In this document: in pieces, positions 3,290 to 61,709 of the stretch
Position numbering within the stretch: position 1 is the first letter of the stretch
How the letters are laid out: every line of letters starts with the position of its first letter
Origin: an uncultured archaeon
Lineage (GTDB): Archaea; Aenigmatarchaeota; Aenigmatarchaeia; GW2011-AR5
Direction of reading: 5' to 3'
NCBI GenBank assembly: GCA_964599215.1
Contig: CAZRDV010000002.1
Coordinates: 36,119 to 100,118 of the forward strand
Length of the DNA: 64,000 nucleotides
The notes under the pieces: model-generated
Seen by the model: the letters and a program-made list of their open reading frames with translations, nothing else
Told to the model about the DNA's origin: nothing
Databases searched by the model: none
Made by a program: the position numbers and the translations under genes

Positions 3290-3397
3290 GCCCCTATAGT
3301 CTAATGGATAGGACGAAAGGTTGCGGACGGCCCTTTTAGAAAAAGCGCCTTTCACGGTAAACACCTTTTAGTTCGGGTTCGATTCCCGATGGGGGCA
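3290..3397 (+). tRNA. tRNA-Arg(GCG) with a 36-nt intron (3327-3362) at position 37/38
   Basis: Acceptor GCCCCTA/TGGGGGC, T-arm TCGGG-TTCGATT-CCCGA, anticodon stem AAAGG/CCTTT, loop TTGCGG|intron|A. The central helix TTGC/GTAA and 3-nt bulges fit a relaxed BHB. The gene starts 2 nt after the preceding stop codon. Confidence 0.8.
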
Positions 3398-9892: not shown

Positions 9893-10117
9893 TTAATTCA
9901 GAGGGTATCTCTTTAGATTATCAATTCTGTCTTTTTTATCATGCCGCCTAATTTTTGATGCTGTCTTTTTGTAAATCTGATAAGACCCGTAAAAAACCAA
10001 ACCTGCACCTACAGCATAACCGAGTACTAAAAGGGCAGGCTTCCAATACTCAAGAGGCGGATCCCAATATATCATATTAAGAACTAAGCTGTAAAACCTT
10101 TTATTTCCACTTTTCAT
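9893..10117 (-). CDS. Small membrane protein, hypothetical
   Basis: 74 aa with one clear TM segment (PALLVLGYAVGAGLVFYGSY). No family recognised. Confidence 0.45.
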   Translation of the reverse strand: MKSGNKRFYSLVLNMIYWDPPLEYWKPALLVLGYAVGAGLVFYGSYQIYKKTASKIRRHDKKDRIDNLKRYPLN

Positions 10118-14960: not shown

Positions 14961-15091
14961 GCCGAGATGGCGGAGTGGTCTAACGCGCATGCCTGGAACT
15001 CCCCTTTTTGCTGATGCAAAAAGTCGAGTGCCATATTAACGGATAGCATGTGAGCATTATGCTCTCGCAGGTTCGAATCCTGCTCTCGGCG
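14961..15091 (+). tRNA. tRNA-Ser(GGA), type II, with a 46-nt intron (14999-15044)
   Basis: Acceptor GCCGAGA/TCTCGGC, long variable arm GAGCA-TTA-TGCTC, T-arm GCAGG-TTCGAAT-CCTGC, anticodon stem CATGC/GCATG, loop CTGGAA|intron|A. Confidence 0.8.
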
Positions 15092-17623: not shown

Positions 17624-17653
17624 TAAAACACCTTTATTTACTGTCAACTTAAT

Positions 17654-17681
17654 GGGTATCAACGGCTTTGCGTTGATACCC
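17654..17681. other. Perfect 11-bp hairpin in the eno-rps2 spacer
   Basis: GGGTATCAACG-GCTTTG-CGTTGATACCC. It contains the GGTATCAA string also found at the ends of the 21.3/22.7/41.8 kb repeat family. Confidence 0.6.
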
Positions 17682-17688
17682 CACGATA

Positions 17689-17718
17689 TAGGATTAGCAT
17701 CAACAGATGCTAATCCTA
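17689..17718. other. Perfect 13-bp hairpin in the eno-rps2 spacer
   Basis: TAGGATTAGCATC-AACA-GATGCTAATCCTA. The C-AACA-G apex is the same as in the hairpins of the 89-nt element. Confidence 0.6.
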
Positions 17719-17801
17719 GTTAAGTTAACGATATCCTTTATCATTCAACATTAAAAAATTAAATACTTAAAATTATCTTTGATGAGAAAAATATCATAAA
17801 C

Positions 17802-21197: not shown

Positions 21198-21270
21198 AAC
21201 ATCGCCTTTTATCAGATAAACAGTATTTCTATCCCTTTTAAAATTTTAAATAATTTAGTTACCTAAGCAT

Positions 21271-21359
21271 GATACCGTCTAAATGACGATGGTTGTCTGT
21301 TGACAACCATCTTTCATGGGTTATTGACAACAGTCAATAACCCTTATTTAGACGGTATC
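21271..21359. repeat. 89-nt palindromic triple-stem element, copy A
   Basis: The outer 14-bp stem GATACCGTCTAAAT/ATTTAGACGGTATC encloses two hairpins, GATGGTTGTC-TGTT-GACAACCATC (21288-21311) and GGGTTATTGAC-AACA-GTCAATAACCC (21318-21343). It is 83/89 identical to the reverse complement of 41851-41939. Confidence 0.9.
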
Positions 21360-21422
21360 CAAACATGATACCGTAAAAGCAACTTAAATAATTTTGTTAA
21401 AACTATTTAGTAGGTGAATCCT

Positions 21423-22683: not shown

Positions 22684-22706
22684 GATACCGTTATTTAGAC
22701 GGTATC
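22684..22706. repeat. Mini-copy of the repeat-family arm (hairpin GATACCGT-TATTTAG-ACGGTATC)
   Basis: GATACCGTTATTTAGACGGTATC contains the full right arm TTATTTAGACGGTATC of the 89-nt element plus 8 nt of the left arm, and lacks the internal hairpins. Confidence 0.8.
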
Positions 22707-41825: not shown

Positions 41826-41850
41826 TTATTTAGAGGGTATCAAAAGAAAT
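41826..41850. repeat. Satellite copy of the repeat-family right arm plus flank
   Basis: TTATTTAGAGGGTATCAAAAGAAAT matches TTATTTAGACGGTGTCAAAAGAAAT at 41924-41948 at 23/25 positions. The two form direct repeats bracketing the core of copy B. Confidence 0.8.
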
Positions 41851-41939
41851 GACACCGTCTAAATAAGGGCTATTGACTGTTGTCAATAGCCCATGAAAGA
41901 TGGTTGTCAATAGACAACCATCGTTATTTAGACGGTGTC
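41851..41939. repeat. 89-nt palindromic triple-stem element, copy B (core inverted relative to copy A)
   Basis: GACACCGTCTAAAT-AA-[GGGCTATTGAC-TGTT-GTCAATAGCCC]-ATGAAA-[GATGGTTGTC-AATA-GACAACCATC]-GTT-ATTTAGACGGTGTC. It ends 49 nt upstream of the ATG at 41989. Confidence 0.9.
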
Positions 41940-41988
41940 AAAAGAAATCTTAGTTAACTTAATATATCAGGAGGGATAAAAGAGAATT

Positions 41989-43626
41989 ATGCTGGAGATT
42001 CTTCTAGTCATTTTAGTAGCTTTTATCGTGGTTATCGTATACCTGTTGTTAAAAAAGCCTGGAGAAGGGGAGAAGGGCATAGCCCCGTTTATCCTGGATG
42101 ATGAAAATTTTGCAAGGAACAGGGTAACAGGAGAGGCAATTGACCAAAGAATAGAGAAATGGTGCTTCGGGCCAAGGGCAGGGCATTCCCTGATTGCTTT
42201 TCCAAGGGAGACGCAGGTTGAGATAGACTTTACAGCGCCCCCAGGTGCTATATCAAAGTTATATTACTCCCTGTGCTTCCAGCTCAGGAAATGGGAATAC
42301 CAGGTCCAGAAGGGTGATGAGTGGATTGAGGTATCCCCGTCCCACAGGGCCTATTACGAGCTAACGCATAAGCAGAAGGAAGAGTTAGAGGTAAGGATAA
42401 AGTCAGGCCTTGCATCTGCTGCACAGGCTGTCGCAGACCTGGAATTAATAAAGCATGACCAGAGAAAATACAAAGAGTTTCTGGAATACTTCGGTTATGA
42501 GTTCACAGGCAATGAATTCGAGGAAACCGGCAATCGGGATGAGCATTCGATAAAAGCCATGTTCGTTGACCTGGTGGATGTCCATACAGGCGAGGGCATA
42601 TCCATGAGATCCATAGTTACAAGATGGCCTACCCTGATAACAGATTTCATCAGACTGGATGATGAAACTGATATTGACAAGGTCAAGAATAAAATGAATG
42701 TATCCAATGCAGAAGCTGTTGTCCTGGTAACAAAGAACAAGCTCTATCATCAGTGGAAGAAGATGTTTGAGCCGCAGCTGAAAGAACGCTACAGGAGGGT
42801 AAGCGAGCTTGTCAAAAGCAGGGAGGAATCAGTCAAGCAATACAGAAACTGGCTTGCTCCTTTCATAGCAAGACATAAGATGCTGGAGGAGGGTATGGGA
42901 AACGCTGGCAGACGAGGCATGCTCAGAACAACATTTGTACTGCACGGCGGGCAGGCAACCTCAATGAGCAAGGTAACAATATGGGCATGGAGGGAGCTAA
43001 CACTGCCGGAATTCCACAAGGGTGGCGGTGAAAGGCTTGGAAGGGAGCTGGGCGAGGGCGTTGTTAAATGCGACGACGACTGGACAAAGGAGAATCTTAT
43101 ATTCCATCCAAAGCACGGGCTGGTTGTAAAATATCCGTGGATAGACGACAAATGGGTTACAGACCAAAAGGACTGGATGATGCAAAAAAATTGGCTGGAA
43201 GAGAACAAGATGTATTATTCTTTCCTGCCTATAACCCTGAACAAAATCAATATAAGAACGCCAGACGGCGATGAGCTGGAAGACGGGGTCTTTGATGTAC
43301 AGGCTGCACTCATGAGCCAGAATGTTATGTTTGTTAAATTATTGGAGATGAGGGCGATGCAGGAGGATCTTAACCGTTATGTTGATGGCCTTATCGGCGT
43401 AGCAAAAGAGCTGCCTCAAGAGGAGGTAAAGAAAGGCAGGAAAACTCTGGAGCCTGCAAAGAACTTCTTCGCATACTTCTCAATGCCGTTCCAGTTCCTC
43501 AAGAGAGGTCCTTATGAAAAGGATTTCTACGACAGGATCTCTCTGTTCTGGTGCAGGCAGATGGCCACACTCAGGTATGCTCCTGTAGTTGGTTTCCTAA
43601 AAAGCAAGATGGGAATGGGGATGTAG
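41989..43626 (+). CDS. Hypothetical membrane-anchored protein (545 aa)
   Basis: One N-terminal TM (MLEILLVILVAFIVVIVYLLL), then about 520 aa of Trp/Lys-rich soluble sequence. No family recognised. Its stop TAG abuts the next ATG. Confidence 0.7.
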   Translation: MLEILLVILVAFIVVIVYLLLKKPGEGEKGIAPFILDDENFARNRVTGEAIDQRIEKWCFGPRAGHSLIAFPRETQVEIDFTAPPGAISKLYYSLCFQLRKWEYQVQKGDEWIEVSPSHRAYYELTHKQKEELEVRIKSGLASAAQAVADLELIKHDQRKYKEFLEYFGYEFTGNEFEETGNRDEHSIKAMFVDLVDVHTGEGISMRSIVTRWPTLITDFIRLDDETDIDKVKNKMNVSNAEAVVLVTKNKLYHQWKKMFEPQLKERYRRVSELVKSREESVKQYRNWLAPFIARHKMLEEGMGNAGRRGMLRTTFVLHGGQATSMSKVTIWAWRELTLPEFHKGGGERLGRELGEGVVKCDDDWTKENLIFHPKHGLVVKYPWIDDKWVTDQKDWMMQKNWLEENKMYYSFLPITLNKINIRTPDGDELEDGVFDVQAALMSQNVMFVKLLEMRAMQEDLNRYVDGLIGVAKELPQEEVKKGRKTLEPAKNFFAYFSMPFQFLKRGPYEKDFYDRISLFWCRQMATLRYAPVVGFLKSKMGMGM

Positions 43627-45294
43627 ATGCCGTATACAGTAGGTGTTTCAAGCGGTTGGTGGAAGATAGACAGACCGCCTGATCTGCTGGGCTTGGCAAC
43701 AAAGGTCGGATCATTTGGCGGCACAGCTGGCGTGCAGTTCATACAGGCAGATTTAGACACGACGAGCGAGTTCTTTGAGCCAAGGCTAAAGGAGCAGATA
43801 AATAGGATAAGGCATAAAATGGGCATGGATTTCGGCCTGCATGCTGAGGTCGGCGAGCTGATGGCCCTGGAAAGCGCAGAGAGGAGGTTATGGGACCAGT
43901 CGCATATAAGATTGGTCGAAACAGTCAAGTACTCTGCTGAGCTCGGTATGAAATATATCAACATACACCTGTCGAACAAACCACAATTACTGTTTCTAGA
44001 GGCACAGTACAGGGTAACTGGTTATTTCTATCCTGTTGTAAGTTATGATGGAAGGCCGATATGGACAATATGTGAAGAGAATGAAAAGGTGAAAGAGGCT
44101 GCAAAAAAACATATCCGTGGTGTTGAAAGGGTTGTCTTTGATGATAACCAAGATGGTTATGAAAAAATCCTTGAATGGCAATCGAGTATTGAAGAAAGGG
44201 AGGTCAGAAAAGAGCTTGATGAGCTAGAATCAAGTCCTGAGTATGAAACTGCTAAAGGATCTGGGGACCTTTCTCTACAAAGGGTCTTACAGGCCCAGGC
44301 AACTGAGAGGGGAAAGGGAAATGCAAGGTCTATTGTCAATAGGGAGCTGCCAGATCAGGTATACTATGCATGGAAAGAATCTGTAAATGCACGCTATAAC
44401 CTTGATACAGCAGAAATAGCTGCATATACAATAGTCGCACGTTATATGAAGGAAACAGGCGACCCCTTATGGAGCAATATATGCAAGAACGGGGATGTAG
44501 AACGTACTTACGTTGATCATCATGCAGAGTTCAACGCAGCACTTGCTGCCAAATACCTGGAGGGTCATCTGACTGTAAAGAACAACGAATACAATAAAAA
44601 ATACCTGAACGGCATGAGCGTTTTAGAGTGGTTAGAAAAGCATAAGATAATACTCGCACTTGAAATACCTGAGGCGCACGAGGGTTATGAAGGCCTTCTA
44701 AGGCTTATAGATCCTCTGCAGGGGCATGTCCTGATAAGGAAACTCAGGTCTCCAATATTGAAACTATGCATAGATTTCGAGCACATGCTTTCCCATAAGC
44801 TGAATGTAGAGAATATGATAAACAAACTGCCTTCAGGCGGGGGCAAGGATATAATTGCCCTGCACGTAGGCAAGCCAATACCGTACTTCGGTTCTGCGCA
44901 TACGCCCATACCCATCGGGTCCAGGGCACAGGAAATAGTATACCAGTGGATATTTGCCTTAAGGAAAAAGGGCTTCAGAGACGGTTACATAATCTATGAA
45001 AGAGGGGGTGGAAAAACTGCCTGGGATGTTATGCAGAATGTGGTCTGGGTAATGAGGCAGATGGTAAAATACCTTGAACAGGATGTTCCTTTTGATAAAC
45101 TGCCACCGGAGTTCTACGGAATATCAGAGCAGACCAAGGAGACCTTTGCACGGCAGCTGGTCACTGTAAGAGACCATGCCTGGGACCCGTTAGAAGGCGT
45201 ACTAGAAATACCAGAGGAGAAGCATACCTTCCTCAGCAAGGTTGCTGTTGAAAAGGGCAAGAGGGAGGAATGGGAAAAGAGGAAGCTCAGGTAG
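43627..45294 (+). CDS. Xylose-isomerase-like TIM-barrel (AP endonuclease 2 superfamily) protein with an insertion of about 200 aa
   Basis: N-terminal ...MGMDFGLHAEVGELM...AELGMKYINIHLS and C-terminal ...ILALEIPEAH...KLCIDFEHML...IIALHVGK...SAHTPIPIGS...GYIIYERGG follow the barrel's metal-ligand pattern. The middle third has no counterpart. Confidence 0.6.
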   Translation: MPYTVGVSSGWWKIDRPPDLLGLATKVGSFGGTAGVQFIQADLDTTSEFFEPRLKEQINRIRHKMGMDFGLHAEVGELMALESAERRLWDQSHIRLVETVKYSAELGMKYINIHLSNKPQLLFLEAQYRVTGYFYPVVSYDGRPIWTICEENEKVKEAAKKHIRGVERVVFDDNQDGYEKILEWQSSIEEREVRKELDELESSPEYETAKGSGDLSLQRVLQAQATERGKGNARSIVNRELPDQVYYAWKESVNARYNLDTAEIAAYTIVARYMKETGDPLWSNICKNGDVERTYVDHHAEFNAALAAKYLEGHLTVKNNEYNKKYLNGMSVLEWLEKHKIILALEIPEAHEGYEGLLRLIDPLQGHVLIRKLRSPILKLCIDFEHMLSHKLNVENMINKLPSGGGKDIIALHVGKPIPYFGSAHTPIPIGSRAQEIVYQWIFALRKKGFRDGYIIYERGGGKTAWDVMQNVVWVMRQMVKYLEQDVPFDKLPPEFYGISEQTKETFARQLVTVRDHAWDPLEGVLEIPEEKHTFLSKVAVEKGKREEWEKRKLR

Positions 45295-61622: not shown

Positions 61623-61709
61623 GGGTCTGTAGTTTAGCCAGGATAGAACGACCGGCTTCGGTTATTAGAAGATACCGGTAGATCGGGGGTTCGAATCCCT
61701 CCAGGCCCA
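61623..61709 (+). tRNA. tRNA-Arg(UCG) with a 12-nt intron (61662-61673)
   Basis: Acceptor GGGTCTG/CAGGCCC, T-arm GGGGG-TTCGAAT-CCCTC, anticodon stem ACCGG/CCGGT, loop CTTCGG|TTATTAGAAGAT|A. Central helix CTTC/GAAG with bulges GGT and ATA. Confidence 0.75.

Follow-up and report, generated by a model that had tools for sequence, protein, structure and literature searches.

The 89-bp palindromic element lying between the S27e and L7Ae operons is very probably a small non-coding mobile repeat that belongs to a MITE family of a DPANN (Aenigmarchaeota) archaeon. Target-site duplications, copies dispersed over unrelated loci and presence/absence differences between close relatives together lead to this assignment. 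The element is small and lacks coding capacity, it is bounded by terminal inverted repeats (TIRs) and flanked by duplications of its target, its copies are dispersed and are present or absent at orthologous sites, and its decay products (deletion derivatives and solo ends) were observed as well. The family is active or recently active. An earlier sequence-only reading of the window (the whole 64-kb stretch analysed here) had favoured selection on a fold, either a structured RNA or a cruciform or protein-bound DNA palindrome; the target-site duplications, the dispersed copies and the presence/absence differences speak against a function of this kind that is specific to the spacer. The same reading had allowed that target-site duplications combined with presence/absence polymorphism would reclassify the element as a MITE, and both were found.

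Architecture of the two full copies in the window

In a scripted comparison, copies A and B were each 89 nt long and aligned without gaps, with exactly six differences (from A to B: 3 T>C, 15 G>A, 29 G>A, 51 T>C, 70 A>G and 87 A>G). As previously described, both partners are substituted in the pairs 3/87 and 51/70, position 15 lies in a junction and position 29 in a loop. Six random substitutions spared all Watson-Crick pairs in only 1.4e-4 to 3.1e-4 of simulations, thus the pattern seen between A and B is not due to chance. That all 35 base pairs stay intact is true of A versus B but does not extend to the six further copies presented below.

Folding confirmed a 14-bp outer stem enclosing a 10-bp and an 11-bp hairpin (the clover fold), on either strand and as RNA or DNA. 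The RNA folding energies were -52.9 and -57.1 kcal/mol (z about -13 to -14). When folded as single-stranded DNA, the same clover was the centroid structure for copy A and the MFE structure for copy B (z -13 to -16). Copy A has perfect 14-bp TIRs; those of the other copies carry at most one mismatch. With a size of 85–89 bp in the family and no ORF within the element, these sequences are small and non-coding as MITEs are. Rfam 15 at the gathering score gave no match at the element, in agreement with the earlier failure to recognise an RNA family; four tRNA matches, all located elsewhere, were the only ones returned in the window.

Precomputed Pfam matches confirmed the context of copy A, a 225-nt spacer that separates the minus-strand S27e/aIF2alpha operon from L7Ae-S28e-L24e on the plus strand. 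Copy A is placed between the two divergent TATA-like promoter blocks of this spacer, both of which are conserved in the closest relative contig (L020). All coordinates are given in Table 1.

Table 1. Positions of the elements, their parts and their flanking duplications (window coordinates unless another locus is named; CM, covariance model; TSD, target-site duplication).
Feature	Position	Strand	Remarks
MITE copy A	21271-21359	+	full length, 89 bp; hairpin 1 then hairpin 2; CM 110.9 bits
Left TIR of copy A, GATACCGTCTAAAT	21271-21284	+	
Internal palindrome 1 of copy A	21288-21311	+	10-bp stem GATGGTTGTC, loop TGTT
Internal palindrome 2 of copy A	21318-21343	+	11-bp stem GGGTTATTGAC, loop AACA
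Right TIR of copy A, ATTTAGACGGTATC	21346-21359	+	
Solo end fragment CATGATACCGT (reverse complement of ACGGTATCATG)	21364-21374	+	second arm of the 11-nt direct repeat; 8-nt solo end inside
MITE copy B	41851-41939	-	full length, 89 bp; CM 114.1 bits
Left TSD of copy B, AAAAGAAAT	41842-41850	+	9/9
Right TSD of copy B, AAAAGAAAT	41940-41948	+	9/9
Solo right-end fragment TTATTTAGAGGGTATC	41826-41841	+	one mismatch to TIR; abuts left TSD of copy B
Internal-deletion derivative GATACCGTCTAAATAACGGTATC	22684-22706	-	23 nt; between CBS-domain gene and S13 operon
Second MITE family, same clover architecture	17638-17734		between enolase and S2 genes; CM match 17637-17735
TSD copies of second family	about 17631-17637 and 17735-17741		7-9 bp
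Hybrid copy in L017	L017 11609-11696	-	upstream of Nop56-like gene; found with the covariance model
Flanking 9-mers of L011, TGATTCTGG / TGATTCTGC			8/9
Flanking 9-mers of L013, CCACTCAAG / TCACTCAAG			8/9
Flanking 9-mers of L016, TAGCAGTAA / TAGAAGTAA			8/9
Flanking 9-mers of L018, ATTTATCAA / ATTTATCAG			8/9
Flanks of L017, TGTGTTCT / TGTGTCCT			7/8 at 8 nt

Copies are dispersed and mostly flanked by target-site duplications

Metagenomes were scanned with a pattern of two end cores spaced 45–75 nt apart. Nine loci were recovered; two pairs of them represent the same locus in different samples and one (L014) is unrelated. Six further distinct full copies were thus obtained, each in a different gene neighbourhood, and the pairwise identity among the eight full copies (A, B and these six) is 79–95%. 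The pattern demanded intact TIR cores, so that conservation of the outer stem among these n = 8 copies is partly by construction. The L011 copy is carried by the same NCBI contig (114,247 nt) as the window. While the G+C content of L011, L013 and L017 (0.42–0.43) is that of the window, it is 0.35–0.40 for L015, L016 and L018, and the family therefore probably spans more than one host. All insertions are intergenic: some separate divergent starts, some lie between convergent ends and others precede a single gene.

Direct duplications of 9 bp that are at least 8/9 identical flank five of the eight copies. The null expectation for such a match, calculated from window 9-mers located 89 nt apart, is 3.6e-4 for each copy. 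The flanking 9-mers repeat on both sides of a copy yet differ among copies, showing that they are target duplications and not parts of the element. In copies A and L015 the duplications are degenerate, with 5/7 identical positions at best for copy A. The 11-nt repeat CATGATACCGT, which was indeed found at 21268-21278 and 21364-21374 as the sequence-only reading had it, was considered as the target duplication of copy A and rejected: it overlaps the TIR, whereas the duplications of the other copies lie directly outside GATACC...GGTATC. Not a canonical target-site duplication, this repeat consists of the right end of the element with 3 additional nt, and its second instance is a solo end fragment.

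Staggered target cuts of 9 bp are a signature of DDE-type enzymes (IS families). A transposase encoded outside the window may act in trans by binding both ends; the target would then be cut with a 9-bp stagger and the element inserted. We infer both the DDE mechanism and the mobilising enzyme from a single feature, the length of the target duplications. No transposase domain was detected in the 64-kb window (Pfam on 20 ORFs plus precomputed Pfam matches for three overlapping contigs), and the fetched loci and contigs were likewise devoid of any. The TIR-pair pattern, run against genome contigs, matched only three times and by chance, in MAGs of Gammaproteobacteria and Bacteroidales where the sequence between the ends is unrelated, and three scans of viral contigs (TIR pair, hairpin 1 and hairpin 2) found nothing.

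The locus set aside above, L014, which the covariance model also recognised weakly, was rejected as a relative of the family: it belongs to another organism and was matched by its dyad symmetry. At 2600-2830 of this unrelated metagenome contig we observed an intergenic array of about seven palindromic units CATTTAGACNGTCTAAAT spaced by 20–45 nt. These units share the 8-mer GTCTAAAT with the MITE end, are otherwise unrelated to it, and have an iteron- or operator-like look.

The element is absent from orthologous sites in relatives

Comparison of orthologous intergenic regions, as the sequence-only reading had suggested, showed that the element is missing from the same spacer in a close relative. 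The closest relative contig, L020, encodes an aIF2alpha that is 94% identical and holds the whole S27e/L7Ae spacer, collinear with the window. This spacer reads ...TTTACGGTATCATGCTTAGG... and does not contain a 96-nt block in which the element is accompanied by TTTG and by one copy of the shared 11-mer, such that TTTACGGTATCATG|CTTAGGTAAC is continuous. Just an 8-nt fragment is retained there. Since the 11-nt direct repeat ACGGTATCATG contains the breakpoints and the comparison is with a single close relative contig, the sequences fit both with an insertion of copy A beside a pre-existing solo end and with its deletion by slippage between the repeats.

Similar comparisons were made with more distant relatives. 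In L021 (82%), the upstream region is unrelated and does not contain the element. For the L011 site, in the MoxR/268-aa spacer, L023 and L026 (65–69%) keep both promoter blocks and lack the element, and the 60–72 nt between these blocks are unrelated. At this site in L022 (74%), a single CCAGAAAGC, resembling the duplicated CCAGAATCA, runs through without any TIR. Among the homologues of aIF2alpha and of the 545-aa protein encoded downstream of copy B, the minority with an organism name come mostly from Candidatus Aenigmarchaeota, the rest of these being labelled "archaeon".

These data bear on the idea that the element is a protein-binding palindrome, an operator of ribosomal-protein operons whose recognition motif, located upstream of promoters, would be TTATTTAGACGGTATC. 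The motif does face a start codon at 50–79 nt in four window cases (S27e, L7Ae, S13 and the 545-aa gene), and the internal palindromes are perfect dyads of 24–26 bp, of the kind bound by dimeric regulators. However, other copies occupy non-promoter sites beside unrelated genes, including positions between convergent gene ends, only the 8-nt fragment occurs in the L020 spacer and nothing in more distant relatives, and the target-site duplications show that the motif arrived by insertion. An operator function is, on this evidence, extremely unlikely. As a MITE insertion, copy A is most likely a tolerated passenger of the S27e/L7Ae spacer, persisting as harmless.

Solo ends and internal-deletion derivatives

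A search of the window with the 14-nt end identified an exact end at 22693-22706, preceded by about 8 further nt of the element. In this derivative, GATACCGTCTAAATAACGGTATC, element positions 1–18 are joined to positions 85–89, and the junction coincides with an ACG microhomology (element positions 16–18 and 82–84). A weak end-like sequence, ATTCAGAGGGTATC, was also noticed at 9896-9909, immediately 3' of a stop codon; with 2 mismatches, it may represent either an old solo end or chance similarity.

A solo right-end fragment adjoins each full copy in the window, its orientation relative to the copy being the same in both cases, and the one beside copy A also stands alone in the unoccupied site of L020 (L020 75-90). 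Copies A and B thus share a common layout: a solo right end, 7–9 nt, the full element, and the same or similar 7–9 nt. The spacer between the solo fragment and the full copy repeats the other flank in 9/9 positions for B and resembles it for A. This layout goes beyond what simple random insertion explains. It could have been caused by insertion beside resident ends, or by a tandem duplication of the element with its target-site duplication, most of the first unit being deleted afterwards.

The promoter-proximal outer flanks of the two copies are also alike, with 13/15 identical positions between CTTAGGTAACTAAAT (21250-21268, minus strand) and CTTAGTTAACTTAAT (41949-41965, plus strand), and both resemble the end GTTAACTTAA of the second family described below. 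This likeness could reflect remnants of older insertions or chance in AT-rich promoter DNA.

Covariation of the hairpins and its possible origins

When the eight copies were placed on the clover, 97% of the cells were paired. Double-sided changes were found at four pairs (3/87, 25/34, 51/70 and 57/64); the covariation values were reached by 0–2 of 500 shuffles and exceed every slid control. Stems were less variable than loops and junctions. A single long hairpin (1–36 with 54–89) was evaluated as the selected fold and discarded: 80% of the cells were paired, with no excess over shuffles and no covariation support outside the outer stem. The covariation of the local hairpins, combined with the unsupported long hairpin, indicates that the two local palindromes are the maintained units. 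The fold-preserving pattern noted between A and B is therefore real and persists with eight copies, but exceptions occur. Among the eight unpaired cells are an A·A at 48/73 in L013 and, at 3/87 in L015, a half-step C·A; indels also truncate a hairpin in three of the eight copies (L016, L017 and L018). In L013, L016 and L017 the loop of hairpin 1 has changed from TGTT to AACA, its exact reverse complement. Wobble asymmetry was considered as a test of strand bias: single-sided G·T and C·A numbered 4 and 1, respectively, counts too few to interpret.

Such a pattern raises the question of a structured non-coding RNA gene or a cis-regulatory RNA whose three-stem fold is selected for a host function. 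The very stable predicted fold, double-sided changes above the level of shuffles and the lower variability of stems would all agree with an RNA, and MITE transcripts with compensatory changes are known, as exemplified by bcr1 in the summary of PMC3184786. On the other hand, no Rfam match was obtained, both strands and single-stranded DNA fold equally well, target-site duplications are present, and copies show no fixed orientation or setting with respect to genes and are found even between convergent 3' ends. Orthologous conservation fails as well, the element being absent from the spacer of the 94% relative and from the 65–82% relatives. Finally, a flipped loop is what recombination between the two arms of a DNA palindrome, or template switching from one arm to the other, would produce, and it is not expected under selection on an RNA loop. 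Taken together, the unpaired cells, the truncated hairpins and the loop flip point to DNA-level palindrome dynamics or to selection for transposition; an RNA gene is, in our view, a highly unlikely explanation. Finding perfect compensatory substitutions when two palindrome copies are compared is thus not enough to call an RNA gene, since mobile palindromes have the same signature.

For a MITE, two processes that may act singly or together would maintain arm complementarity. Each strand is predicted to fold as a clover through its two perfect internal palindromes. If only copies with intact palindromes keep transposing, the sampled lineages would be those that passed this filter; such selection among copies for continued mobility would mimic compensation. 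Alternatively, the arms of the DNA palindrome may correct each other by intrastrand template switching. Arm-to-arm template switching symmetrises mutations and so mimics compensatory evolution, and the exact loop flip in three copies indicates that such events occur here. Minute hairpin inversions in chloroplast spacers were reportedly described by Kelchner and Wendel in 1996, and quasipalindrome correction is said to go back to Ripley in 1982.

A sibling family and a hybrid copy

The check with a covariance model that had been proposed on the basis of the first two copies was performed with a model built from all eight. It found a hybrid copy in L017 and a diverged element in the window. The latter represents a second MITE family that shares the clover architecture. 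Its outer inverted repeat is GT[C/T]AACTTAA; of its two hairpins, one (GGGTATCAAC/GTTGATACCC) has an 8-nt loop, and the other is 13 bp long and has the loop AACA. The stem of one family-2 hairpin holds GATACC, the terminal hexamer of family 1. The filled site in the window reads gaatgATAAAGG[97 nt]ATAAAGGtgttt, and L020 (3335-3390) contains its base-exact empty site, gaatgATAAAGG|tggcc, with one ATAAAGG.

The hybrid carries both hairpins of family 1 and different termini, ATACCATCCACTTAA. Its hairpin 1 shows two adjacent compensated pairs (GATGGTTAGC/GCTAACCATC). These sequences suggest that a hairpin module is common to families with different ends. Because the hybrid keeps the same hairpins with other ends and the sibling keeps the same architecture with other sequences, one may consider a DPANN clover-MITE superfamily in which the paired internal palindromes, and not the termini, are the conserved functional module. 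We consider this extended reading unlikely. If it were true, it would imply structure-specific recognition, of a cruciform or of folded single-stranded DNA, within transposition; such a structure-recognising pathway would still make 9-bp duplications and favour landing beside resident ends. Alternatively, the hairpins would have been exapted by the host as binding sites or RNA modules.

Comparison with known palindromic repeats

The hybrid also bears on REPINs, REP doublets that form hairpins and are mobilised by RAYTs (PMC3116915). If the family were of the REPIN or IS200/IS605 type, its inverted REP-like hairpins would be read on single-stranded DNA by an HUH tyrosine transposase (RAYT/TnpA). 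The points of likeness are a pair of inverted palindromic units whose arms are 81% complementary and that can adopt a long-hairpin or a clover fold, compensatory changes across the hairpins as in REPINs (PMC3116915), solo units resembling decay products, insertion next to existing units, and a hybrid (L017b) that keeps the hairpins when the termini differ. Nevertheless, REPINs and IS200/IS605 elements insert without target duplication and have no TIRs, whereas 9-bp duplications (5–6 of 8 copies) and 14-bp TIRs are found here. REPINs depend on a single-copy HUH transposase, and no Y1 transposase domain was detected in the 64-kb window; no conserved tetra- or pentanucleotide precedes the insertions on their 5' side. 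The family does not group with REPINs by these features, and a mechanism of this type appears very improbable.

The MITE assignment finds parallels in SM1–SM4 of Sulfolobus solfataricus, described as archaeal MITEs (Redder, She and Garrett 2001, via PMC10969869). According to this summary, and as for prokaryotic MITEs in general, they are small and non-coding, with TIRs and short direct target repeats; AT-rich and multicopy, they lie in intergenic regions, are predicted to form a stable stem-loop and presumably depend on an IS transposase acting in trans. All of this resembles our family. As far as the same summary goes, the differences are the DPANN host, the lack of a known sequence relationship and the clover with its two perfect palindromes in place of a single hairpin. 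SM elements were moreover matched to ISC elements, whereas no cognate IS was found here in the window or the fetched loci.

In the Bacillus cereus group, the MITE-like bcr1 (PMC3184786, summarising Klevan et al. 2007) offers a precedent for the covariation, with compensatory changes that keep a cruciform-like fold. In that account it also resembles our element by its flanking direct repeats, by a position that varies between close strains and by the loss of structural stability in some copies. It differs in being bacterial, transcribed and about 155 bp long with 5-bp repeats, while the present element is 89 bp long with 9-bp duplications. What is beyond the ordinary is only the hairpin covariation and the modular relatives, and the covariation has precedents.

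A MITE census of 8220 archaeal genomes (PMC11602168) found the highest archaeal densities in DPANN (Altiarchaeum and a Woesearchaeon). Compared by density, the two full copies, one derivative and one sibling-family copy per 64 kb fit this picture; the census does not include a covariation analysis. Our results document a MITE family and a sibling built on the same plan, both carried by the small genome of an uncultivated DPANN archaeon, with insertion between the promoters of core ribosomal-protein operons. Should the hairpins prove necessary for mobilisation, the family would offer a compact archaeal model of the role of DNA secondary structure in DDE-type transposition. Such repeats may contribute to contig breaks in these metagenome assemblies, and they are usable as strain markers.

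Other observations in the window

The 545-aa protein downstream of copy B (41989-43626) has no Pfam domain. It has at least 120 homologues (291 matches at E≤0.001) that are 45–59% identical to it over most of its length, and those with an organism name are nearly all from Aenigmarchaeota. The gene that follows encodes a 555-aa protein (43627-45294) with only a weak xylose-isomerase-like TIM-barrel match. These two genes are a conserved lineage-specific pair.

Rfam tRNA matches of 87–131 nt, missed by ARAGORN, are located at 3290-3397, 14961-15091 and 61623-61709 and are presumably intron-containing archaeal tRNA genes.
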